From a virus (taxonomy: Duplodnaviria > Heunggongvirae > Uroviricota > Caudoviricetes): DNA of 34,077 nucleotides. The DNA lies in the IMG/VR virus record IMGVR_UViG_2547132421_000005; one strand, written 5' to 3'. Positions 4,072 through 28,104 of this stretch are shown here, in pieces (within the stretch, counting starts at the first letter, position 1; every line of letters begins with the position of its first letter). Made by a program: the position numbers and the translations under genes. The notes under the pieces were generated by a model. That model was given only the letters and a program-made list of their open reading frames with translations, did no database searches and was not told the DNA's origin.

Positions 4072-4686
4072 TTATCTAAAAGTCTTTCCACTTTTAACAT
4101 CTAGGTATATTCTGTTCGACAACGTCATTCCTCCGCAATATGTGAAATAGATGTTTTCACCCTTATTGCTTGATGCCATCCACCCTCCGATTTCCTTAAA
4201 ATCGCTTTCCGTGCAGACCCCTTCATTTATTAACTTCCTAGCTGCCGAAGAAAACTCTTTTTTGTATATACGGTAGTCATCAGATCCTTTGATTAAAGTA
4301 TCATCTCCGCTCGCATTTTCAGCAGGATCTGATGGCCTTTCACTGCTAAGATCACTAAGTTTAACCCATTCTGAAAACTTGCCATTAACGATTCCATTTT
4401 TTCTTGTGCAGGATTTATTACCTTCTTTAATATATTCGCTTTCCCCTCCAACACATGAGGCTGAATATGGCTCAGTTATACGAACCCATTCACCTTTTTT
4501 TTCTAGAAAATCTACGCCTTCCCTGAAAAATAGTTTCCCAGCCACTCCACATTTACTTGAAGGGCAGGTATGTCTTTCCGTTCGATCAACAACAACCCAT
4601 AGTTTTGATTCATTTTTTGCCATTGCCGATGGTATTTGAGATGAGACAATTAACGTAAGCCCTAAAATTAGTATTGATTTTTTCAT
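4072..4686 (-). CDS. Secreted/periplasmic Cys-rich protein of unknown function, 204 aa
   Basis: Track ORF; N-terminal signal peptide MKKSILILGLTLIVSSQIPSAMA then mature region with about 10 Cys; AT-rich; own terminator downstream. Confidence 0.65.
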   Translation of the reverse strand: MKKSILILGLTLIVSSQIPSAMAKNESKLWVVVDRTERHTCPSSKCGVAGKLFFREGVDFLEKKGEWVRITEPYSASCVGGESEYIKEGNKSCTRKNGIVNGKFSEWVKLSDLSSERPSDPAENASGDDTLIKGSDDYRIYKKEFSSAARKLINEGVCTESDFKEIGGWMASSNKGENIYFTYCGGMTLSNRIYLDVKSGKTFR

Positions 4687-13924: not shown

Positions 13925-14452
13925 CTATCAAATCAAATACGCCAGCACACGACAAGGACTGCTGGCAAACGAACGCCGCTTTGGCTTTTTGATGCACTGG
14001 ATATTGAGTTTGGATTCTGGCTGGATTCGGCAGCGAGCGACAAAAATGCTCTGTGTGCTCACTGGCTAACTGAGGCCGACGACGCGCTCAATTCTGAGTG
14101 GGTAAGCCACGGTGCAATCTGGAATAACCCACCGTACAGCAATATCAGGCCGTGGGTGGAAAAAGCTGCTGAGCAGTGCATACAACAGCAACAGACGGTA
14201 GTTATGCTTGTGCCAGAGGATATGTCAGTCGGATGGTTCAGCAAGGCTCTGGAGAGTGTCGACGAAGTTCGCATTATCACTGATGGACGGATTAATTTTA
14301 TCGAACCATCGACAGGGCTGGAGAAGAAGGGAAACAGCAAAGGCTCCATGCTGCTGATTTGGCGACCGTTCATCAGTCCTCGACGGATGTTTACTACCGT
14401 ATCCAAAGCGGCATTGATGGCGATCGGGCAGGGCGTCAGGAGGGCGGCATGA
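13921..14452 (+). pseudogene. Phage Dam-like DNA N6-adenine methyltransferase, disrupted by a +1 frameshift (apparent 4-bp tandem duplication aacg-aacg at 13968-13975)
   Basis: ATG at 13921 overlaps the ninB stop; frame 1 reads MTIKSNTPAHDKDCWQTNAALAF then stop; frame 2 continues PLWLFDALDIEFGF...AIWNNPPYSNIRPWVEKAAEQ... with the NPPY catalytic motif, to 14452. Removing one aacg copy gives a continuous ...DCWQTPLWLFDALD... reading. Confidence 0.7.
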
Positions 14453-14625
14453 GGCGACAGCGACGAAGTTTCACCGACATCATCTGCGAAAACTGCAAAT
14501 ACCTTCCAACGAAACGCTCCAGAAATAAACGCAAGCCAATCCCAAAAGAATCTGACGTAAAAACCTTCAATTACACAGCTCACCTGTGGGATATCCGGTG
14601 GCTAAGATATCGTGCGAGGAAATGA
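14449..14625 (+). CDS. ninE: NinE, 58 aa
   Basis: Internal ATG of track ORF 14359..14625: [52 protein letters not shown]; start overlaps the Dam-like stop (ATGA). Confidence 0.8.
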
Positions 14626-16293: not shown

Positions 16294-16818
16294 TTATTGT
16301 TTAACCCATAATAATTCATTGACATTGAATCCCAACTTTTGAGCGGTTCGCACATAGTCTGCTTTTACTTTATCTGGAATAGTTGGGGTCCTTGCCAGAA
16401 TCCATAGGTATTCTCTGTTCGGACCACTGACAAGAGCATACTTATACTCATCATCCAGTTTGATTACATTATAGCCACCATAGAAGGGGCCAAAAAACGA
16501 AACCTTCAATGCTGCAGTTTTAGTATCTCCAGTAAAGTATGCTTTACCTTCGCTCTCGCTCCATTTATTTTTCGTTGGATCGTATCCACGGTTAAGTACA
16601 CGAATCCCTCCGTCGTTCCGTTTTCCATAAGTAGCGCTGACCTGTTCCAGACCACGTTCGAACCGGTTCTCGAGGCGAGCTATTTCATACCATTTTCCGA
16701 GGTAGCGGTTGGCGTCAAAATTTGTAATCGGCTGCACACCTTTAGGTGGTGTCGGGGCCTTACATGCTATAAGAGTGAAAGAGAGTGCAATGCCAGTCAA
16801 CACAGGCCATAACTTCAT
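16294..16818 (-). CDS. blc: Blc-like outer-membrane lipocalin lipoprotein, 174 aa
   Basis: Track ORF; signal peptide plus lipobox LIAC; YLGKWYEIARLENRFERGLEQVSATY is the lipocalin signature of Blc. Confidence 0.85.
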   Translation of the reverse strand: MKLWPVLTGIALSFTLIACKAPTPPKGVQPITNFDANRYLGKWYEIARLENRFERGLEQVSATYGKRNDGGIRVLNRGYDPTKNKWSESEGKAYFTGDTKTAALKVSFFGPFYGGYNVIKLDDEYKYALVSGPNREYLWILARTPTIPDKVKADYVRTAQKLGFNVNELLWVKQ

Positions 16819-17010
16819 AATAAATCCTGTACTTTTGATAGTTGAGAGTAAGTATGAAAGATAGATGATTACGACCGATCACTTAAAGAACTTTCATACT
16901 ATATTAGGAATAGTCCATAACAGAAAAATTGTCAGTGATGACGCCAGAAAGGCAATTTATTCCGTGCACTACACAGTTTATGTGTTAATGAATTAGTCAA
17001 GGGGGAGAAT

Positions 17011-17970
17011 ATGATAAAAAAACCTGTGATTGGAATCAGCGGTTGTTTGGCCGGTTCTGCTGTTCGTTTTGATGGTGGTCACAAAAGAGCTGACTTTTTA
17101 ATGGACAAATTAGTGGAATGGGTAACATTCAGACCAGTATGTCCGGAAATGGCTATAGGGCTGCCAGTTCCGCGTCCTGCTCTACGTCTTGTGCGCTCGA
17201 TGCAAGGAAATATACGGATGTGTTTCAGCCACGACCAGAATGAGGATGTGACAGAGAGAATGACAGAGTTTAGTCGTTCTTATATGGACAAATTAAAGGA
17301 TGTATCGGGGTTTGTGGTTTGTGCTAAATCTCCCAGCTGTGGCATGGAGCGCGTGCGTGTCTATGATGAAAATGGTAATCGAGGTCGTAAAGATGGAGTG
17401 GGACTATTTACGAGCACTTTGATGGAAAAGTTTTCCTGGCTACCGGTTGAAGAGGATGGGCGATTACATGATCCAGTGCTTCGTGAGAATTTTGTTGAAA
17501 GAGTTTTTGCTTTGCATGAGCTCAATCACCTTTACAAGGAGAAATTATCAAGAAGAGAGTTATTAGCTTTTCATAGTCGTTATAAGCTTCAGTTGTTGGC
17601 GCATAGTCAGGCAGGCTATAAAGATATGGGACCATTTGTGGCTGCAATACACGAGTGGGCGGACCTTGAATCATACTTTGAGGTGTATCGTGATAAGCTG
17701 ATGGCGATTCTCAGAAAACCTGCATCACGTAAAAATCACACGAATGTGCTGATGCATATACAGGGGTATTTTAGTAACTACTTAAGTACACGCCAGCGTA
17801 AAGAGTTGAGCGAGGTTATACTTAACTATCGTTCTGGCACATTACCTCTTCTTGCGCCGTTGACTCTGCTGAAGCATTATCTGGGTGAGTATCCTAATGA
17901 TTACTTGCTTACACAGAATTACTTCGATCCCTATCCGGACGAACTGGCTCTAAGACTGATGGTAAATTAA
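17011..17970 (+). CDS. DUF523-DUF1722 fusion protein (TudS/RudS-like thiouracil/4-thiouridine desulfidase family), 319 aa
   Basis: Track ORF; N-terminal Cys-rich DUF523-like region (GISGCLAG...CPE...SPSCG) and YbgA-like C-terminal half; family assignment from memory. Confidence 0.7.
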   Translation: MIKKPVIGISGCLAGSAVRFDGGHKRADFLMDKLVEWVTFRPVCPEMAIGLPVPRPALRLVRSMQGNIRMCFSHDQNEDVTERMTEFSRSYMDKLKDVSGFVVCAKSPSCGMERVRVYDENGNRGRKDGVGLFTSTLMEKFSWLPVEEDGRLHDPVLRENFVERVFALHELNHLYKEKLSRRELLAFHSRYKLQLLAHSQAGYKDMGPFVAAIHEWADLESYFEVYRDKLMAILRKPASRKNHTNVLMHIQGYFSNYLSTRQRKELSEVILNYRSGTLPLLAPLTLLKHYLGEYPNDYLLTQNYFDPYPDELALRLMVN

Positions 17971-18312
17971 TTGTATGCGATATCATCCAAAAGGATGAGT
18001 TCCTGCATGCAGGATATTTACAATCGTAAAAACTACACTATGATACCCAGAGTGTCAGTTTGTATAAAAACTCTGTTTACGCTGAAGAAACAATTGAGAT
18101 GCAACTTAAAGTTGGTAAACATGCCAGTCAAAATATATAATATTATGATTCCACGCAGCTATATATAATATAACAGATTGGTTTAATAATTTGTCTTTGT
18201 GAGTTAAATACATAATTTTATACTTGTGATGCAATGAAATTTTCCTTATTGTTGAACTGGCGAATATTGATTTTCCACCTATACTTACCTGGTGTAACCC
18301 CAATGATATCAG

Positions 18313-19053
18313 GTGGATAATATGCCATACATATGTTCTATCATTTTGGTGTTGAACTCGTTTGATGTCCGAATCGGTAAAGAAGATATTTTGTTTAAAA
18401 AAGGAAGTGCTGTTCTCATTGATTACAATTTAAAAGATTTTTTTTCATCAAATATAGATCATGTAATGATCGTAGATGTTGAAGAGAAAACAGTTAATGA
18501 TTTCTTTAAAAGCAACACACTCTCACCTTTTTCTGTAAGAAGGTTTTATCCGGCATACTTGATGGTGGAATGTGAAGATTTTTCATTGTTAAAGAACTTG
18601 ATTGCATGCTTGAATTGTGATGGCAGAACTGTGGATTTTGTTAGAAATCAAATATCACTTGCATGTCTTGCTATCTTATCTTCAGAGAAAATAGTGCAAA
18701 GTTTTTTATTTGGATGTCTTAATAGTTTAGGAAGTAAAGTTAAGGCTATTATTCACACGGATATATCTGCAGCATGGAGACTTTGTGATATATCTTCAAG
18801 ACTGTATCTGAGTGAAAGTCTGTTAAAAAGAAAATTAAAGCACGAAGGCTTATCATTTAGTAAGTTAATTCTTGAAGAGCGAATGGTGATGGCGGAAAGG
18901 TTATTAAGCTACAATTTATATTCTGTTGGAAAAGTTGCTGAGATATGCGGTTATGAAAACACGTCATATTTTGTAAGTGTTTTCAGAAGGTATTTTGGTG
19001 TTCCTCCCCATCAATATTCATCAAGATTTTTTTTAGAAAAAGACATGATGTAA
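18313..19053 (+). CDS. AraC-family transcriptional regulator (AppY/EnvY-like), 246 aa
   Basis: Track ORF; C-terminal AraC HTH (LSESLLKRKLKHEGLSFSKLILEERMVMAERLL...VGKVAEICGYENTSYFVSVFRRYFGVPPHQY); strongly AT-rich. Confidence 0.8.
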   Translation: MDNMPYICSIILVLNSFDVRIGKEDILFKKGSAVLIDYNLKDFFSSNIDHVMIVDVEEKTVNDFFKSNTLSPFSVRRFYPAYLMVECEDFSLLKNLIACLNCDGRTVDFVRNQISLACLAILSSEKIVQSFLFGCLNSLGSKVKAIIHTDISAAWRLCDISSRLYLSESLLKRKLKHEGLSFSKLILEERMVMAERLLSYNLYSVGKVAEICGYENTSYFVSVFRRYFGVPPHQYSSRFFLEKDMM

Positions 19054-19296: not shown

Positions 19297-19361
19297 TGAT
19301 CTTACCCAGCAATAGTGGACACGCGGCTAAGTGAGTAAACTCTCAGTCAGAGGTGACTCAC

Positions 19362-19661
19362 ATGACAAAAACAGTATCAACCAGTAAAAAACCCCGTAAA
19401 CAGCATTCGCCTGAATTTCGCAGTGAAGCCCTGAAGCTTGCTGAACGCATCGGTGTTACTGCCGCAGCCCGTGAACTCAGCCTGTATGAATCACAGCTCT
19501 ACAACTGGCGCAGTAAACAGCAAAATCAGCAGACGTCTTCTGAACGTGAACTGGAGATGTCTACCGAGATTGCACGTCTCAAACGCCAGCTGGCAGAACG
19601 GGATGAAGAGCTGGCTATCCTCCAAAAGGCCGCGACATACTTCGCGAAGCGCCTGAAATGA
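19362..19661 (+). CDS. insE: IS3 transposase OrfA (InsE), 99 aa
   Basis: Track ORF 19353..19661; [54 protein letters not shown]. Confidence 0.9.
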
Positions 19662-20524
19662 AGTATGTCTTTATTGAAAAACATCAGGCTGAGTTCAGCA
19701 TCAAAGCAATGTGCCGCGTGCTCCGGGTGGCCCGCAGCGGCTGGTATACGTGGTGTCAGCGGCGGACAAGGATAAGCACGCGTCAGCAGTTCCGCCAACA
19801 CTGCGACAGCGTTGTCCTCGCGGCTTTTACCCGGTCAAAACAGCGTTACGGTGCCCCACGCCTGACGGATGAACTGCGTGCTCAGGGTTACCCCTTTAAC
19901 GTAAAAACCGTGGCGGCAAGCCTGCGCCGTCAGGGACTGAGGGCAAAGGCCTCCCGGAAGTTCAGCCCGGTCAGCTACCGCGCACACGGCCTGCCTGTGT
20001 CAGAAAATCTGTTGGAGCAGGATTTTTACGCCAGTGGCCCGAACCAGAAGTGGGCAGGAGACATCACGTACTTACGTACAGATGAAGGCTGGCTGTATCT
20101 GGCAGTGGTCATTGACCTGTGGTCACGTGCCGTTATTGGCTGGTCAATGTCGCCACGCATGACGGCGCAACTGGCCTGCGATGCCCTGCAGATGGCGCTG
20201 TGGCGGCGTAAGAGGCCCCGGAACGTTATCGTTCACACGGACCGTGGAGGCCAGTACTGTTCAGCAGATTATCAGGCGCAACTGAAGCGGCATAATCTGC
20301 GTGGAAGTATGAGCGCAAAAGGTTGCTGCTACGATAATGCCTGCGTGGAAAGCTTCTTTCATTCGCTGAAAGTGGAATGTATCCATGGAGAACACTTTAT
20401 CAGCCGGGAAATAATGCGGGCAACGGTATTTAATTATATCGAATGTGATTACAATCGGTGGCGGCGGCACAGTTGGTGTGGCGGCCTCAGTCCGGAACAA
20501 TTTGAAAACCAGAACCTCGCTTAG
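19658..20524 (+). CDS. insF: IS3 transposase OrfB (InsF; normally made as an OrfAB frameshift fusion), 288 aa
   Basis: Track ORF; DDE integrase-core region ([31 protein letters not shown]...HTDRGGQY...). Confidence 0.9.
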
Positions 20525-20683: not shown

Positions 20684-20820
20684 AATCTTAACTACAATAT
20701 GATTCATTTTGATGATTGTTTCATAAGGAACAGTGAAGTAAGATCTAAGAGGAGTTAAATTTTATACAGTATAATCATAATATTGCAGCAAGGTGGTTAT
20801 AATTGAAAGAATATTTAGAT

Positions 20821-22278
20821 ATGAATACATCTCATGTAAGAGTTGTTACTCATATGTGTGGGTTCCTGGTTTGGCTCTATAGTCTTTCAATGTTGCCACC
20901 AATGGTTGTAGCATTGTTTTATAAAGAAAAAAGCCTGTTCGTTTTCTTTATAACTTTCGTTATATTTTTTTGCATTGGTGGCGGAGCGTGGTATACAACT
21001 AAGAAATCTGGCATTCAATTACGTACCCGTGATGGGTTTATTATAATTGTAATGTTTTGGATTTTGTTTTCTGTTATTAGTGCATTCCCTTTATGGATTG
21101 ACTCAGAACTTAATTTAACGTTCATTGATGCTCTGTTTGAAGGGGTTTCTGGAATAACAACAACAGGAGCAACTGTAATTGATGATGTTAGTTCATTACC
21201 TCGGGCATATTTGTACTATCGGTCACAGTTAAATTTTATAGGTGGTTTAGGAGTTATTGTTCTGGCGGTTGCTGTATTGCCATTATTGGGTATTGGTGGT
21301 ACAAAGCTTTATCAGTCAGAAATGCCGGGGCCATTTAAGGATGACAAACTCACTCCCCGCCTGGCCGATACGTCACGGACACTGTGGATAACTTATTCTT
21401 TATTAGGTATTGCTTGTATTGTCTGTTATAGACTTGCAGGAATGCCTTTGTTTGATGCTATTTGTCACGGGATTTCCACAGTTTCGCTTGGTGGTTTCTC
21501 AACTCATAGCGAGAGTATCGGATATTTTAATAACTATTTGGTTGAGCTGGTGGCTGGTTCTTTTTCCCTGCTATCGGCTTTCAACTTCACTCTTTGGTAT
21601 ATTGTTATTAGCAGGAAAACGATAAAACCTTTAATCAGAGATATTGAACTTCGTTTCTTTCTGTTAATAGCCTTAGGGGTGATCATTGTTACCTCTTTCC
21701 AGGTCTGGCATATAGGTATGTATGACTTGCATGGAAGTTTTATTCATTCGTTTTTTCTTGCCAGCTCCATGCTCACTGATAATGGTTTAGCTACGCAGGA
21801 TTATGCAAACTGGCCCACGCACACGATAGTGTTTTTGCTGTCGTCAAGTTTCTTTGGGGGATGTATAGGTTCAACTTGTGGTGGAATTAAGTCACTTCGA
21901 TTTCTTATACTTTTCAAACAAAGCAAACACGAGATAAATCAGCTTTCTCATCCCAGAGCGTTGTTGAGTGTAAATGTAGGAGGGAAGATAGTTACAGATC
22001 GTGTAATGAGGTCTGTATGGAGTTTCTTTTTTCTTTATACTCTCTTCACGGTGTTTTTTATACTGGTGTTAAATGGTATGGGATATGATTTTCTTACATC
22101 ATTTGCAACAGTGGCTGCATGTATTAATAATATGGGATTAGGTTTTGGGGCTACTGCATCGTCATTCGGAGTGCTTAATGACATTGCAAAATATTTAATG
22201 TGCATAGCTATGATTCTTGGTCGCCTTGAAATTTATCCTGTTATTATATTGTTTTCAGGTTTTTTTTGGCGCTCCTAA
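20821..22278 (+). CDS. trkG: TrkG/TrkH-family K+ uptake membrane protein, 485 aa
   Basis: Internal ATG of track ORF 20803..22278 (MNTSHVRVVTHMCGFLVWLYSLSMLPPMVVALFYK...), recognised as the Rac-prophage trkG type; polytopic membrane protein; AT-rich. Confidence 0.9.
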   Translation: MNTSHVRVVTHMCGFLVWLYSLSMLPPMVVALFYKEKSLFVFFITFVIFFCIGGGAWYTTKKSGIQLRTRDGFIIIVMFWILFSVISAFPLWIDSELNLTFIDALFEGVSGITTTGATVIDDVSSLPRAYLYYRSQLNFIGGLGVIVLAVAVLPLLGIGGTKLYQSEMPGPFKDDKLTPRLADTSRTLWITYSLLGIACIVCYRLAGMPLFDAICHGISTVSLGGFSTHSESIGYFNNYLVELVAGSFSLLSAFNFTLWYIVISRKTIKPLIRDIELRFFLLIALGVIIVTSFQVWHIGMYDLHGSFIHSFFLASSMLTDNGLATQDYANWPTHTIVFLLSSSFFGGCIGSTCGGIKSLRFLILFKQSKHEINQLSHPRALLSVNVGGKIVTDRVMRSVWSFFFLYTLFTVFFILVLNGMGYDFLTSFATVAACINNMGLGFGATASSFGVLNDIAKYLMCIAMILGRLEIYPVIILFSGFFWRS

Positions 22279-22415
22279 TATATGGCTGATTTATAATTGT
22301 GAGTTTAATATTATATTGACTCACTCATTGATCCAATACCTAACTTTACCAGCAACACCTCCGCCCCCAGTAGCACTGGCTGCTGGGGTGCGTTTTATTC
22401 ATAAAGCAAGGCTGT

Positions 22416-23204
22416 ATGAGCGAGAAATTAAAGATAGTCTATCGCCCATTACAAGAATTGTCACCGTATGCGCACAACGCCAGGACGCACAGTACTGAGC
22501 AGGTGGCACAACTGGTAGAAAGTATTAAGCAATTCGGCTGGACTAATCCGGTGCTGATTGACGAAAAGGGCGAAATTATTGCGGGTCACGGTCGTGTTAT
22601 GGCGTCTGAAATGCTCAAAATGGATTCTGTTCCGGTCATTGTTCTGTCTGGCCTGACGGATGAGCAGAAAAAGGCGTACCGCCTGGCAGATAATCGCCTA
22701 CCGATGAATGCTGGCTGGGATGAAGATCTGTTGCGGATGGAGCTGTCGGACCTAATCAATGCTGATTTTGATGTCTCCCTGACAGGCTTCGGCCCGACAG
22801 AAATTGATGAACTGTTGACGGATGTTTTGCCCGGTACAGGAAATAAGGAGGAGCCGTATACGACGAAAATTGATACGCCTGTTTATGAGCCGTCGGGCGG
22901 TAAACCGGATATCAGTGAACTGTACGACGATACGAAAACTCAGGAGCTGATCAGCCGGATACGTTCGGCGTCCCTTGAGCCTGATATTGAGAAATTCCTC
23001 CTGTGTGCGGCAGAACGTCACACGGTGTTTAATTTCAGCAGAATTGCGGACTATTACGCTCATGCCCCCGCTGAAATTCAGTGCCTTTTCGAGGAGTCGG
23101 CGCTGGTGATCATTGATTATCAGCAGGCTATTGAAAATGGATTTGTCCGAATGACGCAGCGCATGGTGGCGATCATGCATAGCGGGGAGGAGGAATATGC
23201 GTGA
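22416..23204 (+). CDS. ParB-like nuclease (ParB N-terminal/sulfiredoxin-fold) domain protein, 262 aa
   Basis: Track ORF; NPVLIDEKGEIIAGHGRVMA contains the ParB-N GxGR-type motif. Confidence 0.7.
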   Translation: MSEKLKIVYRPLQELSPYAHNARTHSTEQVAQLVESIKQFGWTNPVLIDEKGEIIAGHGRVMASEMLKMDSVPVIVLSGLTDEQKKAYRLADNRLPMNAGWDEDLLRMELSDLINADFDVSLTGFGPTEIDELLTDVLPGTGNKEEPYTTKIDTPVYEPSGGKPDISELYDDTKTQELISRIRSASLEPDIEKFLLCAAERHTVFNFSRIADYYAHAPAEIQCLFEESALVIIDYQQAIENGFVRMTQRMVAIMHSGEEEYA

Positions 23205-24060
23205 TGATTTTTGCGCCTTTATTCTGACTCACGGGCGACCGGACAAAGTTCTGACTTACCGGACGTTGCGTCGTGCTGGCTATACCGGGAAAATTTTTAT
23301 CGTTGTTGATGATGAAGATAAGACACGGCATCAGTACATGGCTGAATTTGGTGAACAGGTGCTGGTATTTTCCAAAGCAGATATTGCCAGTCGTTTTGAC
23401 GAAGCCGATAATTTTGGTGACCGCCGCTCAATTTTTTACGCCCGTAATGCCTGTTTCGACCTGGCAAAACTGGTCGGGTGTAAATACTTCATTCAGCTCG
23501 ATGATGATTATCACGAGTTCCAGTTTCGGGTGGATCGCAACTATGACCAGGCCTATTTCCCGATAAGGAAACTGGATGCGATCCTTTCTGAAATGCTGGC
23601 GTATTACGAATCAATACCCGCGCTTTCCATCGCTATGTCGCAGGGCGGGGATTTTCTTGGTGACAATGGCGGCCATGCTTCGTGGGTGAAACGCAAGGCA
23701 ATGAACAGCTTTATCTGTTCGGTTGATCGACCGTTCTCATTCATGGGGCGCATTAACGAGGATGTGAATACGTACACGAATCTCGGTCGCCGTGGTGAAT
23801 TGTTTATGACGATCGGTGCTGTCCAGTTAGGGCAGAAACAGACGCAGAAAAACAGCGGCGGAATGACCGAGCTGTATCTGGATTCCGGGACCTACGTTAA
23901 AAGTTTTTATTCCGTCATTTATGCGCCGTCGTGCGTAAAAATCTCACTGATGGGCGCCAGCCATAAACGCATTCACCATCAGGTCACCTGGAACAACGCT
24001 GCAGTAAAAATCCTTCACGAAAAATACAGGAAGAAGACACCCTGCATATTAATGGGGTGA
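23197..24060 (+). CDS. Hypothetical protein, possibly a GT-A-fold nucleotide-sugar transferase, 287 aa
   Basis: Track ORF; N-terminal FILTHGRPDKVLTYRTL...IFIVVDDEDK and later IQLDDDYHEF resemble the GT-A signature with a DxD motif. Tentative. Confidence 0.45.
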   Translation: MRDDFCAFILTHGRPDKVLTYRTLRRAGYTGKIFIVVDDEDKTRHQYMAEFGEQVLVFSKADIASRFDEADNFGDRRSIFYARNACFDLAKLVGCKYFIQLDDDYHEFQFRVDRNYDQAYFPIRKLDAILSEMLAYYESIPALSIAMSQGGDFLGDNGGHASWVKRKAMNSFICSVDRPFSFMGRINEDVNTYTNLGRRGELFMTIGAVQLGQKQTQKNSGGMTELYLDSGTYVKSFYSVIYAPSCVKISLMGASHKRIHHQVTWNNAAVKILHEKYRKKTPCILMG

Positions 24061-24063
24061 CAA

Positions 24064-24315
24064 ATGATTCCGTATTCGAAAGTCGAGTCTCTGGCAGCGT
24101 GCCGGATGACTGCACAACAAATCGCTGACGTACTGGATGTTGATCTGAACCGACTGAAAGAAAATCGGGAAGCAATGACAAATTTTTACGCGTCCATCCG
24201 TAAGGGCAGAGCGAAAGGTGAAGCCGAGCTACGGGCGGCATTGTTTAAGCTTGCCAGAAAAGGGGATGCCTTTGCCCTGCGCGAACTACTCAGGGTGGAT
24301 AAAAATCAGGACTAA
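24064..24315 (+). CDS. Hypothetical small protein upstream of the terminase, 83 aa
   Basis: Track ORF; helix-rich, basic; tightly coupled to the following gene. Confidence 0.45.
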   Translation: MIPYSKVESLAACRMTAQQIADVLDVDLNRLKENREAMTNFYASIRKGRAKGEAELRAALFKLARKGDAFALRELLRVDKNQD

Positions 24316-24318
24316 CTG

Positions 24319-25413
24319 ATGAGCAGACCGGACTGGGGGGCGTTGCAGCAGGAGTATATTGCTGAATACACCCGCTCCGGTATATCTCCGGTGGCATGGT
24401 GTGAAGCAAGGGGACTGAATTACGCAACAGCCCGTCGTTACATCAAAAAACCTCCGAAAAATGCGCAGACAGAAATGCGCAAAACTGCGCAAAAAAGTGC
24501 GCAGAAAAAATCTGCGCAGACTGCACAAAAGCGGAACGGAAAATCTCAGGAAAAAAAGCCAGTATCCGATGCGTACCTGAATGAGGGCGATGCGGAAGAA
24601 ATTTCGTTCTGTCCCGATGAATTCGGCGTTTCTGACCAGCAGGCGAAATTCGCAATGCTGGTTGCCCAGGGGAAAAAACTCGTTGAGGCATATCGCCTGG
24701 CAGGATACGAGTCAGAGGGGAATGCGGCCTACGTAACCGCCAGCCAGCTCCTAAGAAATCCTAAGGTTTTTCGTGCTATCAGCTACTTCCGCAATCAGTA
24801 CCAGAAACGCTATACCGCAGACCTGGATTTACTGGTGAGTCAGTTGATGGCCATTGTCCAAGCCGACCCCAATCAGTTGGCACAATTTCGCCGTGTTAAC
24901 TGCCGTTATTGCTGGGGCGAGAATCATCACTACCAGTGGCGCGATATAGCAGAATTCGATAAGGCAGCGGCGCAGGCCTCCAGAGATGGCAAACCCGAGC
25001 CGGAATATGGTGGCCTTGGCTTTGTTGATAACGCCATACCCAATCCGGACTGCCCGAAGTGCTGCGGTGAGGGAACGGGGCAGCTTTATATGGCTGATAC
25101 CACTCTGCTTGATGGGGATGCGCGGCAATTATATGCAGGGGCAAAGCTCGGAAAATTTGGTGTTGAGATCCTGCTGGAGGATAAGGCTGCCGCCCGGCGT
25201 GAATTGTTGCGTTTGCTTGCTGCTGGCGGGGCTTTATGTGCAGATAAGCGGCTACAGGAACTGGAAATTGAACGGCGCAGAATGGAAAACCAGAAGCTGC
25301 GCAAAGAGATCGAAACGGTGGAGGATAATGAACATCCCCAACCTGTTGCGATCAATATTAATGTGGTTGATGCCAGAGTAAGGAGTGATGAAGATGATCT
25401 CTCCGACGCTTAA
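24319..25413 (+). CDS. Terminase small subunit (candidate), 364 aa
   Basis: Track ORF; N-terminal HTH-like region (ARGLNYATARRYIKK) typical of TerS; immediately upstream of the terminase large subunit. Confidence 0.6.
   Translation: MSRPDWGALQQEYIAEYTRSGISPVAWCEARGLNYATARRYIKKPPKNAQTEMRKTAQKSAQKKSAQTAQKRNGKSQEKKPVSDAYLNEGDAEEISFCPDEFGVSDQQAKFAMLVAQGKKLVEAYRLAGYESEGNAAYVTASQLLRNPKVFRAISYFRNQYQKRYTADLDLLVSQLMAIVQADPNQLAQFRRVNCRYCWGENHHYQWRDIAEFDKAAAQASRDGKPEPEYGGLGFVDNAIPNPDCPKCCGEGTGQLYMADTTLLDGDARQLYAGAKLGKFGVEILLEDKAAARRELLRLLAAGGALCADKRLQELEIERRRMENQKLRKEIETVEDNEHPQPVAININVVDARVRSDEDDLSDA
24461..24531 (+). repeat. Five to six tandemly spaced TGCGCA(G/A)A units inside the 5' part of the terS gene
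   Basis: atgcgcagac...atgcgcaaaa...tgcgcaaaaaa...tgcgcagaaaaaa...tgcgcagact...tgcacaaaag seen directly; encodes the low-complexity stretch TEMRKTAQKSAQKKSAQTAQK. Confidence 0.6.
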
Positions 25414-26695
25414 TGTGCCTCAGGCGCGATTTCTTTCAATGCCCCACAAATTTAAAGCCTATGTCGCTGGTTTTGGCTCGGGTAAAACATGGATTGGGTG
25501 TGGTGGCATATGCAAGGGGATTTGGGAACATCCTGGTATAAATCAGGGATATTTTGCGCCAACGTATCCCCAAATTCGCGATATTTTTTACCCTACAGTG
25601 GAAGAAGTTGCTGCTGACTGGGGATTGAATGTAAAAATTAATGAGGGAAATAAAGAGGTTCATTTTTATTACGGACGTCAGTATCGGGGAACCACTATCT
25701 GCAGAACGATGGAGAAGCCGCAAACGATCGTCGGTTTCAAAATTGGTAATGCGCTGGTGGATGAACTGGACATTTTGCCGAAGGAAAAAGCCAGAACAGC
25801 GTGGCGCAAGATAATTGCGCGTATGCGTTATAAGGTTGATGGACTTCGCAACGGTATTGACGTTACAACCACGCCGGAAGGATTCAAATTTGTCTACGAG
25901 CAGTTTGTTAAAGCCGTGCGTGAAAAAACAGAGCTGGCCTCACTGTATGGTCTGGTGCAGGCATCTACTTTCGATAATGAAAAGAACCTGCCAGCAGATT
26001 ACATTCCTTCGCTTCTTGAGTCATACCCTCCAGAGCTGATTAAAGCCTATCTTCGAGGACAGTTTACTAACCTGACAAGTGGTACTGTTTACCATCAGTT
26101 TGACCGGAAACTGAATAATTGCGAAGAAGTGGAGCAGCCAGGGGAGCCGATTTATATTGGGATGGATTTTAACGTTGGAAAGATGGCGGGGGGCGTCCAT
26201 GTACTGCGTTTGGGGCTTCCATGTGCGGTAACTGAAATCATCAATGCCTACGATACACCGGATATGATCCGCATCATTAAAGAACGCTTCTGGCTGTATG
26301 ACGGGAATGATTACCGGAAAGTGAGGGAGATTTATATTTATCCAGATGCTTCCGGAGATTCCAGAAAATCAAGTAACGCAAGTACGACGGATATAGCCCA
26401 GCTTAAGCAGGCTGGTTTTAACGTTGTGGTGAACAGCTCGAACCCGCCAGTAAAAGATCGCGTTAACTCAATGAATGCAATGTTCTGCAATGCCAATGGC
26501 GAACGTCGCTATAAAGTTAATGTGAAGCGTTGTCCGGTATATGCCGAATCTCTGGAGCAACAGGTCTGGGATGATAAGGGGGAGCCTGATAAAAAATCAG
26601 GCAACGATCACCCGAATGATGCCGGAGGCTATTTCATCGTTAAGCAATTCCCTATTATCAAACCGACCGGAAGAGTCACATCACTTCGGATTTAA
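25385..26695 (+). CDS. Terminase large subunit, 436 aa
   Basis: Track ORF; Walker A-like AGFGSGKTW near the N-terminus; conserved position upstream of portal. Start codon uncertain. Confidence 0.8.
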   Translation: MMKMISPTLNVPQARFLSMPHKFKAYVAGFGSGKTWIGCGGICKGIWEHPGINQGYFAPTYPQIRDIFYPTVEEVAADWGLNVKINEGNKEVHFYYGRQYRGTTICRTMEKPQTIVGFKIGNALVDELDILPKEKARTAWRKIIARMRYKVDGLRNGIDVTTTPEGFKFVYEQFVKAVREKTELASLYGLVQASTFDNEKNLPADYIPSLLESYPPELIKAYLRGQFTNLTSGTVYHQFDRKLNNCEEVEQPGEPIYIGMDFNVGKMAGGVHVLRLGLPCAVTEIINAYDTPDMIRIIKERFWLYDGNDYRKVREIYIYPDASGDSRKSSNASTTDIAQLKQAGFNVVVNSSNPPVKDRVNSMNAMFCNANGERRYKVNVKRCPVYAESLEQQVWDDKGEPDKKSGNDHPNDAGGYFIVKQFPIIKPTGRVTSLRI

Positions 26696-26697
26696 TT

Positions 26698-28104
26698 ATG
26701 GCTGATATATCAACACCCAACCTCGACTATAACGATATGCTGGAGGCGTGGGATATTAACGACGCACTGATGGGCGGTACGCTTGAAATGCGCAGGCAGG
26801 GGGAAAATTATCTCCCAAAATGGCCTAACGAAGATGAAGACGCTTATAAAAAACGCCTGTCTGTGGCTACGCTACTTCCTGTGTATGAAGAAAGCATTAA
26901 GCAAAATATTGGACGCATATTTGCAGAGCCGACAGTATTGAGTGAGGAAACGCCGGAAAAAATCAGGGAATATGCAGAAAATATCGACATGGAGGGGAGC
27001 CGACTGGATGTGTGGGCGCAGCAATTTTTCAGCCTCGCATTTCAGTATGGTGTGGCACATGCGCTGGTGGACTATCCACGAACGGATATGAAGGAGATCC
27101 GGACAAAAGCCGATGAAAATGCGGCTGGTGGTCGCCCATACGTTACGATGCTGAATCCACGCCAGGTTATTGGATGGAAATCGAAAGTTGAAAAAGGGAA
27201 AGTTGTTCTTACTGATTTGCGTATAAAAGAAGTCATCATTGTTGATGGTGATGATTTCGGGCAGAAGAAGGTGGAGCAGATCCGCCATATTATGCCCCGT
27301 TGCGTTGAAATTTATCGACGCAGCGAAGGTACTAATGGCGAATCTGTCTGGACGCTTCACGAGTCATGGAATACCAGCCGTGATGATATTCCTCTGGTAA
27401 CACTGTATACGAAGAAAACAGGGTTTATGCGTGGTACACCGCCATTGCTTAATCTTGGCTTGCTGAATATCAAGCACTGGCAAAGCCAGAGCGAGCAGGA
27501 CAATATTCTTCATGTTGCCCGCGTCCCATTGCTGGTGGCCTACGGGCTGGACAGGAATGAAGAACTGACGGTTGGTGCATCCACCGCTACGATTTTTGAG
27601 GACAGAACAAAAAATGGCCTCGAATATGTTGAACATAGTGGGGCAGCGATAGAATCTGGCGAAACATCACTGGAGAAGCTGGAAAATCAGATGCGTCATG
27701 CCGGCGCTAAACTTCTGCGGGCTGAAAATACATCCACCAAATCTGTTGATCAGACTAATGAAGAGCGGATGCAGGAAAACTCGCCGCTTTATACAATGGC
27801 GAACTCCCTCGAAGATGCCCTCGATAATATTCTCCAGATAATGGCGGAATGGATCGGAGAGAGTTGCGGCGGCAATGTGAATGTGCGCACTGAACTGGAT
27901 GTATCTGCCCAGGTGTTTGACTCATCCTCCGCGCTGGCTGTTCAGTCATTGCGTCAGGGCGGTGATATACGTCAGATTGATGCGGTTCGGGTGTTGCAGG
28001 CGTTGAAATTTATCGATCAGGATTCCCGTCCAGAGGAAGTGATCGATGAATTAAAAAATCAGAGTGTAATGCTGATGGAAATCAATGATGCAAACCGTGA
28101 ATGA
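26698..28104 (+). CDS. Portal protein, 468 aa
   Basis: Track ORF; size and position between terminase large subunit and head morphogenesis gene. Confidence 0.7.
   Translation: MADISTPNLDYNDMLEAWDINDALMGGTLEMRRQGENYLPKWPNEDEDAYKKRLSVATLLPVYEESIKQNIGRIFAEPTVLSEETPEKIREYAENIDMEGSRLDVWAQQFFSLAFQYGVAHALVDYPRTDMKEIRTKADENAAGGRPYVTMLNPRQVIGWKSKVEKGKVVLTDLRIKEVIIVDGDDFGQKKVEQIRHIMPRCVEIYRRSEGTNGESVWTLHESWNTSRDDIPLVTLYTKKTGFMRGTPPLLNLGLLNIKHWQSQSEQDNILHVARVPLLVAYGLDRNEELTVGASTATIFEDRTKNGLEYVEHSGAAIESGETSLEKLENQMRHAGAKLLRAENTSTKSVDQTNEERMQENSPLYTMANSLEDALDNILQIMAEWIGESCGGNVNVRTELDVSAQVFDSSSALAVQSLRQGGDIRQIDAVRVLQALKFIDQDSRPEEVIDELKNQSVMLMEINDANRE

Follow-up and report, generated by a model that had tools for sequence, protein, structure and literature searches.

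A near-obligate phage gene pair of a ParB-fold partner protein and a TAGT-family glycosyltransferase, a candidate two-component enzyme for the sugar modification of DNA

Among described enzymes, the glycosyltransferase (GT) considered here can be likened to the beta-glucosyl-HMC-alpha-glucosyltransferase of phages T2 and T6, with which it shares membership of PF20691 and phrog_842 and a GT-A fold with a DxD site. The T2/T6 enzyme of PF20691 acts on glucosyl-5hmC in DNA (PMC13216743). It is phage-encoded and soluble and acts after replication, a description that would also apply to our GT if, as we propose below, its substrate is DNA. The T-even enzyme, however, adds a second glucose to a glucosyl-5hmC that comes from a pathway of dCMP hydroxymethylase and alpha-GT, and this pathway is absent here. 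The distance between the two is also considerable, with tblastn at an E value of 1e-3 reaching only homologues in Aeromonas T4-like phages (23-25% identity), and no counterpart of the C-terminal partner domain (CTD) described below was detected alongside the T4-like homologue that was checked.

The GT-A enzymes of phage C5-methyltransferase/5mYOX (TET) clusters (Burke 2021; Pyle 2024) show the same R...DDD...ED pattern. They act on 5hmC in DNA (bioRxiv 10.1101/2023.12.21.572611), and their post-replicative action is shared with the reading proposed here. ParB-like and terminase neighbours are common to both, as are the second GTs, epimerases, and methyltransferases of some clusters, but the cluster enzymes use 5hmC/5hmU from an adjacent dioxygenase, whereas no dioxygenase or methyltransferase was found in the window, as we call the whole stretch of 34,077 nucleotides that was analysed. 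Outside phages, the base J glucosyltransferase (JGT) is homologous to phage GT-As at the level of structure; it glucosylates 5hmU in DNA and depends on the JBP thymine hydroxylases. RefSeq labels homologues of the window GT 'GREB1-related', GREB1 being a protein that bears a glycosyltransferase domain and is reported to glycosylate a protein (PMC7968844). Both JGT and GREB1 are eukaryotic, and neither has a CTD-type partner. 'Solitary' TAGT GTs account for 288 of 753 GT-encoding phage genomes (PMC13216743), and in the data of Pyle et al. about 65% of GT contigs lack a hydroxymethylating neighbour; both surveys leave the function of solitary GTs open.

For the partner protein, the point of reference is ParB176, which consists of an NBD and a CTD with no DNA-binding domain and is needed for the dioxygenase 5mYOX176 to act on dsDNA (PMC13229309). 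No complex of the two could be trapped, NTP-site mutants are still active, and the commonest neighbours of phage 5mYOXs in the accompanying survey are GTs, ParBs, and terminases (PMC13229309). The partner studied here resembles ParB176 in its described architecture of ParB domain, short structured segment, unstructured linker, and CTD. Each of the two is encoded beside the enzyme that it serves, or in our case would serve, often near terminase genes, and the cognate-pair specificity reported for ParB176 is matched by strict pairing in the clade of the window GT. The client of ParB176 is, in contrast, a dioxygenase, whereas the gene neighbour here is a GT, and ParB176 needs both of its domains, while here the CTD alone often suffices as partner. 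A prophage ParB fold is likewise coupled to a DNA-modifying enzyme in the fusions to N6/N4 DNA methyltransferases (PMC12704722; phrog_498), which are enriched in prophages (PMC12704722). Those fusions are covalent and serve methylation, whereas the present pair consists of a separate CTD protein and a GT from an overlapping gene and would serve glycosylation.

The window is a Rac-like lambdoid prophage of E. coli in which three co-directional, closely packed ORFs lie between trkG and the terminase genes, as the original prediction had described. The upstream neighbour (20803-22278) encodes a multi-span membrane protein of 491 aa whose 100%-identical RefSeq copy is annotated TrkG, and 3' of it a consensus scan places a terminator-like hairpin with a 10-bp stem followed by a T-run (22365..22388, +). 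If this hairpin ends the cargo gene, then the ParB-like gene would be the first gene of the late/packaging block. The partner protein (22416..23204, +; full-length ynaK type, 262 aa, pI 4.6) is followed by the TAGT-family GT-A glycosyltransferase (23197..24060, +; 287 aa, pI 8.8), with an 8-nt overlap between the stop codon of the former and the start codon of the latter (23197..23204, +), and by a small basic TerS-like protein (24064..24315, +; 83 aa, pI 9.5). The third ORF begins 3 nt past the GT ORF and ends 3 nt ahead of the TerS gene, and the packaging context continues with TerS (24319-25413, +), TerL (25385-26695, +), and portal (26698-28104, +). Of 5426 complete E. coli genomes, 1607 contain the 2.1-kb stretch, 867 of them over 80% or more of its length; thousands of homologues exist for each of the two larger proteins, and such conservation is far beyond chance.

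The partner opens with a ParB/Srx nucleotide-binding domain (aa 1-100; 22416..22715, +), within which lie the N-x-R box HNARTH (22473-22490, +), the GxxRxxA P-motif AGHGRVMA (22581-22604, +), and a DN[RK] box (22680-22697, +). These motifs confirm the ParB-N-type domain previously proposed for this protein, as do a ParB_N match (PF02195) that scores 28.4 bits where 26.3 are required and the Spo0J/ParB N-domains that rank first in a sequence search of the PDB (E 4e-5). The protein also matches phrog_620 (E 1e-89) and, over aa 3-141, phrog_498, the ParB domain of the ParB-methyltransferase fusions (E 4e-50). The label of 'nuclease' that came with the proposal is, on the other hand, unsupported, as PHROG annotations carry it by name only and no specific nuclease motif was identified. 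A role as a partition ParB was rejected. Partition ParB shares the N-terminal ParB/Srx fold with its GxxRxxA motif, but the window protein is acidic, is 262 aa long, and matched no HTH DNA-binding family in profile searches, no ParA-family match was found among the scanned window proteins, and the TIGR00180 score (37.1 bits) lies below the threshold of 58.45. The annotation 'chromosome partitioning protein' in phage records is misleading.

In the predicted model, the ParB domain is followed by the very acidic linker or 'helix-helix' segment (aa 101-140, pI 4.05; 22716..22835, +), a low-confidence linker, and a helical CTD. A conserved linear motif, YTTKIDTPVYEPS (aa 148-160; 22857..22895, +; consensus Y[ST]xK[IM]xxPxYEP), falls in a region predicted to be unstructured, and the Tyr of its PxY is invariant across viruses of bacteria plus one archaeon. 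The CTD itself (about aa 161-262, roughly 100 aa; 22896..23204, +) contains the invariant blocks AAxRHxxF and ExSALVIID; no Pfam family matched it and no fold relative was found for its model, which is of low confidence. It is also encoded by itself, in proteins of about 133 aa, the copy in Vibrio phage pv27 being 57% identical to the window CTD, and the ParB domain is dispensable in many relatives while the GT never is. The CTD is previously undescribed, and it is the essential part of the partner, not the ParB domain.

Over aa 8-222 the GT scores 125 bits with the profile PF20691 (TAGT), for which the cut-off is 27.5 (E 4.9e-36), and it matches phrog_842 with an E value of 1.7e-101. Its motifs are HGR (23230-23238, +), VVDDED (23302-23319, +; IFIVVDDED at aa 33-41), LDDDY with the DxD (aa 101-105; 23497-23511, +), and NEDVNTY (23755-23775, +), and an alignment of 30 homologues shows R14, D38, D41, D102-D104, and E188-D189 to be invariant. 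Phage DNA GT-As have been described with an active site R...DDD...ED[Y/F] (bioRxiv 10.1101/2023.12.21.572611), and the window GT has V at the third position of the last element in place of Y or F. The 287-aa protein has the GT-A (nucleotide-diphospho-sugar transferase) fold. A structure search against a viral Foldseek library returned other TAGT proteins only, no PDB sequence matched even at an E value of 1, and the C-terminal half of the model is of low confidence. The interpretation of the VVDD and DDD pattern as that of a nucleotide-sugar transferase is upheld by the PF20691 match, the fold, and the invariance of the motif residues, and the protein is a TAGT-family member with the GT-A fold and intact catalytic motifs.

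Co-occurrence of the two larger genes in other genomes, raised in the original prediction as a check, proved near-obligate in both directions. The partner gene accompanies the GT at 47 of 47 evaluable genome loci, which span Proteobacteria, Bacteroidota, Firmicutes, Saccharibacteria, Planctomycetota, and others, and is directly upstream in 43 of them, the exceptions being three loci with intervening genes (L119, L124, and L129) and one that is split (L123). In the reverse test, for which viral loci were seeded with the CTD, the GT is directly downstream in 77 of 79 and within 2.5 kb in the other 2. This diversity was drawn from the genome scan and the CTD-seeded scan, and at four loci with longer antisense ORFs the pair was located by tblastn. 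The first viral-contig scan returned near-identical E. coli prophages only. The same gene arrangement is found in Lactobacillus, Nocardia, and Porphyromonas phages and in the archaeal virus HHTV-2, and one representative protein has the TAGT domain fused to the CTD. Overlaps between the two genes are mostly of 8 or 11 nt and recur across phyla, which suggests translational coupling of partner and GT. Across pairs, the partner is always acidic (median pI 4.55) and the GT usually basic (median 8.7, range 6.25-9.51). The CTD and this GT clade are thus an almost obligate pair, and at least one large clade of 'solitary' GTs is not solitary but has a constant companion, an acidic domain dedicated to it that is in many cases joined to a ParB nucleotide-binding fold; the two genes travel together as a cassette among unrelated bacterial and archaeal viruses.

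We propose that the pair constitutes a two-component, post-replicative DNA sugar-modification enzyme, a reading that we consider evenly balanced between right and wrong. The 287-aa GT would be the catalytic subunit, with its DxD / R / ED site engaging a nucleotide-sugar donor, and the partner CTD with the preceding Y[ST]xKIxxPxYEP motif would bind or activate it, presumably within a physical complex. The optional ParB domain would probably act as an NTP-gated clamp or dimeriser that keeps the GT on duplex DNA, a model taken from the ParB-like protein without a DNA-binding domain that activates a phage thymine dioxygenase on dsDNA. Both proteins would come from the overlapping genes that open the late operon, whose translation is probably coupled, and it could follow from this position that concatemeric DNA is sugar-modified just ahead of packaging by the terminase. 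The benefit would presumably lie in blunting host nucleases, as a form of anti-restriction. Of the earlier idea of a DNA-modification module, the part that stands is the fit to a family whose characterised members glycosylate DNA, along with the precedent of a ParB-like activator; what counts against it is that no enzyme making a hydroxyl acceptor was found. The acidity of the partner is a further counter-point, being unexpected for a DNA-binding subunit. Also to be weighed against the proposal are the untrapped complex and the still active NTP-site mutants of the ParB176 precedent, the protein substrate of GREB1, the low confidence of the models of the CTD and of the C-terminal half of the GT, and the defective look of this prophage copy. 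If the substrate is DNA, the role of ParB-like activators would extend from dioxygenases to glycosyltransferases.

Canonical DNA bases carry no hydroxyl, and no 5hmC/5hmU-making enzyme was found in the window or in the surveyed relatives. The window proteins include no detected TET/JBP, thymidylate-synthase-like hydroxymethylase, or C5-methyltransferase; the annotations of the Lactobacillus phages phi jlb1 and c5, both complete genomes, list no 5hmC/5hmU-making enzyme, nor is one seen among the 25 commonest Pfam families listed per tally for 44 diverse loci or in the precomputed Pfam calls of four metagenomic loci (two distinct phages). It is conceivable that the GT is an ordinary hydroxymethyl-pyrimidine transferase whose 5hmU/5hmC comes from an unlinked or very divergent dioxygenase or hydroxymethylase missed by the searches. 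All characterised relatives use acceptors of the 5hmC/5hmU type, thousands of 5mYOX-like sequences have no TET/JBP Pfam call (PMC13229309), single occurrences could escape tallies of the 25 commonest families, and a P-loop fusion occurs at one locus and a dCMP deaminase at another. We nevertheless regard such a hidden source as quite unlikely, as all ORFs of more than 200 aa but one are assigned in phage c5 (31.8 kb) and none is dioxygenase-like, the phi jlb1 genome likewise leaves no room, and the window, a lambdoid prophage, otherwise holds standard genes, its two unknown ORFs (204 and 174 aa) matching unknown-function PHROGs only. The replication of lambdoid phages, moreover, runs on canonical dNTPs and the polymerase of the host.

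If the substrate is DNA, then, the acceptor must differ from 5hmC/5hmU, which would amount to new DNA chemistry. It could be speculated that the CTD-coupled TAGT clade places sugar on DNA without prior hydroxymethylation, on a canonical base or the backbone, with the partner giving access to the duplex; we hold this specific form of the proposal to be possible but rather doubtful. Were it true, roughly one in three complete E. coli genomes would encode a new DNA modification, as would viruses of many bacterial phyla and of haloarchaea. One candidate acceptor in that case is the exocyclic amine of a canonical base, by analogy with GT-A arginine glycosyltransferases, which modify guanidinium groups.

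The genomic contexts of the pair are of two kinds, directly upstream of unrelated terminases or within replication modules, where the neighbours are DNA polymerase A, sliding clamp, primase, DnaB, SNF2 helicases, FEN, and recombinases. Other neighbours in relatives are UDP-glucose dehydrogenase with an epimerase, sugar methyltransferases, second TAGT paralogues, and radical SAM enzymes. These contexts bear on the possibility that the acceptor is a protein, the GT glycosylating either the partner, at the invariant Tyr or a Ser/Thr of Y[ST]xKIxxPxYEP, or another phage or host protein. Such a reaction might proceed in a glycogenin-like or an O-GlcNAc-like manner. A protein acceptor would agree with the lack of an available hydroxylated base in the genomes examined, with the strict conservation of a motif with an invariant Tyr in a predicted unstructured region, and with the presence of such a partner for every GT of the clade. 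Further points are that TAGT-domain GREB1 is reported to O-GlcNAcylate ER-alpha (PMC7968844), that glycogenin is among the GT-A fold matches, although this match is generic, and that the T4-like Aeh1 homologue has 'PRYEPK' in cis, although this match is not significant. The contexts, however, are DNA replication and packaging modules and not structural or host-takeover ones, and the loci with second GTs, sugar-tailoring genes, and radical SAM genes resemble DNA hypermodification clusters. In addition, phages typically use the ParB fold found in the partner in fusions with DNA methyltransferases or together with DNA dioxygenases, and a docking peptide explains the conserved motif equally well. 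A protein acceptor is judged unlikely; if correct, it would still mean an undescribed and very widespread phage enzyme-substrate or enzyme-adaptor system.

The terminase-proximal context could also be taken to mean that the pair is a packaging accessory, in which a ParB-like nuclease or site-recognition factor aids the terminase and the GT is incidental. HNH proteins aid the terminase in some cos phages. The pair is immediately upstream of TerS/TerL in the window and in about half or more of the diverse loci, and in phage c5 it comes first after the cos site. The proposal of Iyer et al. 2013, as cited in PMC8256090, has ParB direct modification machinery during packaging. Against an accessory role, the terminases that adjoin the pair come from several unrelated families, with the TerLs directly downstream belonging to several different Pfam families, and many pairs reside in replication modules far from any terminase. 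The lack of an identified nuclease motif in the ParB-like protein points the same way, as does the fact that its ParB domain, but never the GT, is dispensable in many relatives, and we find a mere packaging accessory very unlikely.

It appears highly improbable that the GT acts on the cell envelope, by altering one of its glycans as in seroconversion or like the prophage enzyme TarP, or on some other molecule that is not a nucleic acid. The pair does lie beside cargo genes in the prophage, and nucleotide-sugar genes adjoin the GT in some relatives, but no membrane segment or signal peptide was found in the GT, and the partner is a cytoplasmic, acidic protein with a ParB fold. The pair is, moreover, located downstream of the cargo-gene terminator and inside the late block, and it occurs also in an archaeal virus and in lytic phages inside replication modules.

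The small gene that follows the pair had been grouped with it, and this grouping does not hold. The 83-aa protein matches phrog_309 (TerS; E 2.5e-22) over profile positions 145-218 of 319 only, has no Pfam or NCBIfam match, and is encoded by a gene conserved only in enterobacterial loci (L081-L083 and L127). On the strength of this profile match and distribution, it is a putative TerS-like packaging component outside the pair.

In an identical RefSeq genome, PGAP flags both genes of the pair as pseudogenes. For the GT, the 'frameshifted' flag results from a G4 run (24052..24055, +) that is G5 in relatives and shortens the protein from 310 to 287 aa, at the cost of only a non-conserved tail of 23 aa. 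The ParB-like ORF is full length, with 98% identity to a 263-aa cluster of 1812 sequences. The reading of the pair as decayed pseudogenes was therefore rejected, both ORFs being intact across all conserved columns. This prophage copy itself looks defective, with IS3 in place of the lysis genes and an internal stop in rusA. More generally, the Rac-type prophage of E. coli offers a genetically easy test system for the pair. Nothing on the function of ynaK/ydaY was found in the literature; going by the PGAP gene name ynaK, the K-12 ynaK/ydaY genes are presumably truncated remnants of the pair.

The window is a Rac-like lambdoid prophage of E. coli, in which a first block (integrase, exonuclease/RecT/Gam, cI-like repressor, cII, O, P, NinB and Q) is followed by cargo and then by the late genes for TerS, TerL, portal and head proteins. 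Downstream of antiterminator Q, the cargo comprises a lipocalin on the minus strand, a YbgA-family protein that combines a 2-thiouracil desulfurase-like domain with DUF1722, an AraC-type regulator (these three together 16294-19053), an IS3 element (19353-20524) and trkG, the last closed by a terminator-like hairpin (22365-22388, +). Three plus-strand ORFs occupy the interval from trkG to TerS, at the very positions given in the original prediction: the ParB-like partner (262 aa, 22416-23204), the transferase (287 aa, 23197-24060), which overlaps the partner ORF by 8 nt, and a small basic protein (83 aa, 24064-24315) with 3-nt gaps on both sides. Of 5426 complete E. coli genomes, 1607 have this 2.1-kb stretch, as do ten records of Escherichia or Salmonella phages in the phage collection. 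The IS3 element occupies the expected place of the lysis cassette; in the identical RefSeq copy (L221:4063-5384), only Rz1 and lysis-protein fragments of the lysis genes are kept. Because IS3 replaces the lysis genes and rusA has an internal stop, this copy of the prophage is probably defective, and its lytic cycle is likely not completable. The nature of the partner and transferase genes as a module is unaffected by these defects.

The 287-aa protein is, as predicted, a glycosyltransferase. It matches Pfam PF20691 (TET-associated glycosyltransferase, TAGT) with 125 bits against a cut-off of 27.5 and phrog_842 over its full length, and its closest viral fold matches are other TAGT proteins. 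The VVDD and DDD motifs first noticed are real and invariant (VVDDED, aa 36-41; LDDDY, aa 101-105), as are R14 and E188-D189, and R14, LDDDY and E188-D189 match the R...DDD...ED[Y/F] site of phage DNA glycosyltransferases of GT-A fold (bioRxiv 10.1101/2023.12.21.572611). The protein is basic (pI 8.8), has no membrane segment and is very strongly conserved in the genome scan, with 50-57% identity between Enterobacteria and Bacteroidota, Firmicutes or candidate phyla. PGAP flags its gene as "frameshifted" in the RefSeq copy: a G4 run at 24052-24055, which is G5 in four relatives, moves the stop from 310 aa to 287 aa, and the G5 form overlaps the 83-aa ORF by 65 nt. As the tail lost through G4 is not conserved and distant homologues stop at the same place, the flag is not a sign of decay.

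The ParB-like domain proposed for the partner was located at aa 1-100, a ParB/Srx nucleotide-binding domain with PF02195 barely over threshold, Spo0J/ParB N-domains as best PDB sequence matches and a GxxRxxA motif reading AGHGRVMA; nothing speaks for the accompanying label of nuclease. Residues 101-140, which come next, are very acidic; aa 148-160 form a linear motif that is conserved (YTTKIDTPVYEPS), and the protein ends in a helical C-terminal domain (CTD) whose AAxRHxxF and ExSALVIID blocks are invariant. The pI of the whole protein is 4.6. The CTD matched no Pfam family, and a search with a low-confidence model found no fold relative. A partition ParB was considered and rejected, the protein falling below the TIGR00180 cut-off and having no HTH domain; no ParA-family match was found among the window proteins scanned. 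PGAP annotates just the first 86 codons (L221:7117-7374) as a partial ynaK pseudogene, an annotation artefact, since the ORF has no interruption and shares 98% identity with a 263-aa protein whose cluster counts 1812 members.

Co-occurrence of the two genes, a check suggested at the outset, proved near-universal in both directions. Scanning one genome per species gave 49 loci with a transferase relative across many phyla, and a gene with the partner CTD adjoins the transferase in every one of the 47 uncut by a contig end. It lies directly upstream in 43, the commonest overlaps being 8 or 11 nt; the two are separated by further genes at L119, L124 and L129, a second TAGT paralogue among them, and at L123 the partner is split. 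The pair is likewise annotated in Lactobacillus phages phi jlb1 and c5, Nocardia phage NTR1, haloarchaeal virus HHTV-2 and Porphyromonas phages, where the transferase shows just 27% identity. Conversely, among 79 evaluable viral contigs (of 80 retrieved by the CTD alone), the transferase is directly downstream in 77 and within 2.5 kb in the other 2. Most partners in these contigs are missing the ParB domain, and in several loci and Vibrio phage pv27 the partner is motif and CTD alone (~133 aa; 57% identity to the window CTD in pv27). About 1200 clusters (50% identity) hold the CTD in an exhaustive search, at the C-terminal end in nearly all CTD proteins among the matches listed, and P0381, a 534-aa protein from the representative library, is a natural fusion of an N-terminal TAGT domain (Pfam match aa 5-193) with a C-terminal partner CTD (aa 403-511). 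It is therefore the motif-bearing CTD that forms the obligate partner; a ParB domain is often added to it but is optional. A usually basic transferase (median pI 8.7, range 6.25-9.51) goes with a partner that is acidic at every locus (median 4.55).

A terminase large subunit lies at most two genes downstream of the pair in roughly 20-25 of 43 diverse loci, with families as different as Terminase_6N, Terminase_3, T7-type, GpA-type and TerL_ATPase, and the pair also precedes the terminase in the window, phi jlb1, c5, NTR1 and the Porphyromonas phages. The remaining pairs, stand-alone CTDs especially, are found among DNA polymerase A, sliding clamp, primase, DnaB, SNF2 helicases, FEN, recombinases and N6/N4 methyltransferases. 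A role of the pair as a packaging accessory is contradicted by its occurrence in replication modules, by how varied the terminase families are and by the dispensability of the ParB domain; we consider it highly improbable. The 83-aa protein, by contrast, would by its sequence belong to the packaging block: it matches the middle of the TerS profile phrog_309 (E 2.5e-22) and is known only in enterobacterial relatives, between the pair and TerS. Some relatives carry glycan-building-type genes near the pair, namely a second TAGT, fused to a SAM methyltransferase (L119:3581-5275) or to a P-loop domain and accompanied by an additional CTD gene (L124:571-2004), UDP-glucose 6-dehydrogenase with NAD epimerase/dehydratase (L128:10844-13104), sugar methyltransferases and a radical SAM enzyme (L123:10840-11799; L129:10860-11819). 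An envelope glycan as acceptor is scarcely credible given soluble proteins, a ParB-fold partner and the presence of the pair in lytic and archaeal viruses.

Characterised members of the TAGT family glycosylate DNA, the T2/T6 enzyme putting a second glucose on glucosyl-5hmC (PMC13216743), and 5hmC is the substrate of GT-A enzymes from phage methyltransferase/TET clusters, which are similar to the base-J glucosyltransferase of trypanosomes (bioRxiv 10.1101/2023.12.21.572611). A phage thymine dioxygenase was found in 2026 to require, specifically on double-stranded DNA, a ParB-like protein that has a CTD and a domain for nucleotide binding but lacks a DNA-binding domain, and the commonest neighbours of such dioxygenases are glycosyltransferases, ParBs and terminases (PMC13229309). 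Prophages are enriched in ParB folds fused to DNA methyltransferases (PMC12704722), which the ParB domain of the window partner matches (phrog_498, E 4e-50), and an older proposal, as cited in PMC8256090, has ParB proteins guiding modification machinery during packaging.

No TET/JBP, thymidylate-synthase-like hydroxymethylase or recurrent C5-methyltransferase was found in the window or among the 25 commonest families listed for the surveyed neighbourhoods, nor were TET/JBP, such a hydroxymethylase or a C5-methyltransferase in the complete genomes of phi jlb1 and c5. To our knowledge, all enzymes of this type depend on a hydroxyl carried either by the base or by a sugar that the base already bears, and no source of one was seen in these genomes. 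That a divergent dioxygenase was overlooked is very unlikely because the complete genomes are small, and direct modification of canonical DNA by the pair is conceivable, if doubtful. What is new here is a ParB/CTD partner coupled to a TAGT cassette without any hydroxymethylating enzyme. Surveys had already recorded such enzymes as "solitary TAGTs" (PMC13216743), and within the reach of our search no analysis or explanation of them was found in the literature.

The best-supported reading, which we regard as an evenly balanced call, is that a basic TAGT and an acidic CTD/ParB partner modify newly made phage DNA. The TAGT would be the catalytic subunit, bound by the partner through its CTD or motif, and a partner with a ParB domain could act as a nucleotide-gated clamp or dimeriser that opens duplex DNA to the enzyme. 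Placing the coupled genes in the replication module or at the start of the late operon would ensure that new DNA is modified before packaging, presumably to the benefit of the phage. Of all this, the pairing, the motifs, the fold, the family and the genomic context are shown, and complex formation, action on DNA, the clamp and the advantage to the phage are inferred. The DNA-modification module of the original prediction gains strong comparative support as a paired module, with DNA modification itself plausible and not proven. It could also be speculated that the partner itself or another protein is glycosylated, in line with the invariant tyrosine of the partner motif and with GREB1, a TAGT-domain protein described in PMC7968844 as glycosylating a protein; we consider this unlikely. 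The pair is readily testable in E. coli.

Two minus-strand ORFs of the window, 4072-4686 (204 aa, in a low-GC stretch of 0.39) and 14059-14583 (174 aa), have as sole matches the unknown-function PHROGs 8310 and 37455, with no dioxygenase likeness at profile level. In Aeh1, a T4-like phage of Aeromonas, no CTD was detected in the neighbours of the TAGT-like gene, whose product gp093 (L218:2689-3888), a T4-like TAGT homologue, has an N-terminal extension with the sequence "MPRYEPK"; this sequence is similar to the partner motif PxYEP, at a profile match that is not significant. A Faecousia prophage has, directly downstream of its TAGT gene, a gene for another ParB_N-domain protein that differs from the first (L091:10875-11447). 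Four family-2 glycosyltransferase genes follow in a row right after the capsid gene of a phage that has the ParB-TAGT pair as well (L134:17837-20316; L135:8659-11138), which may point to virion glycosylation.
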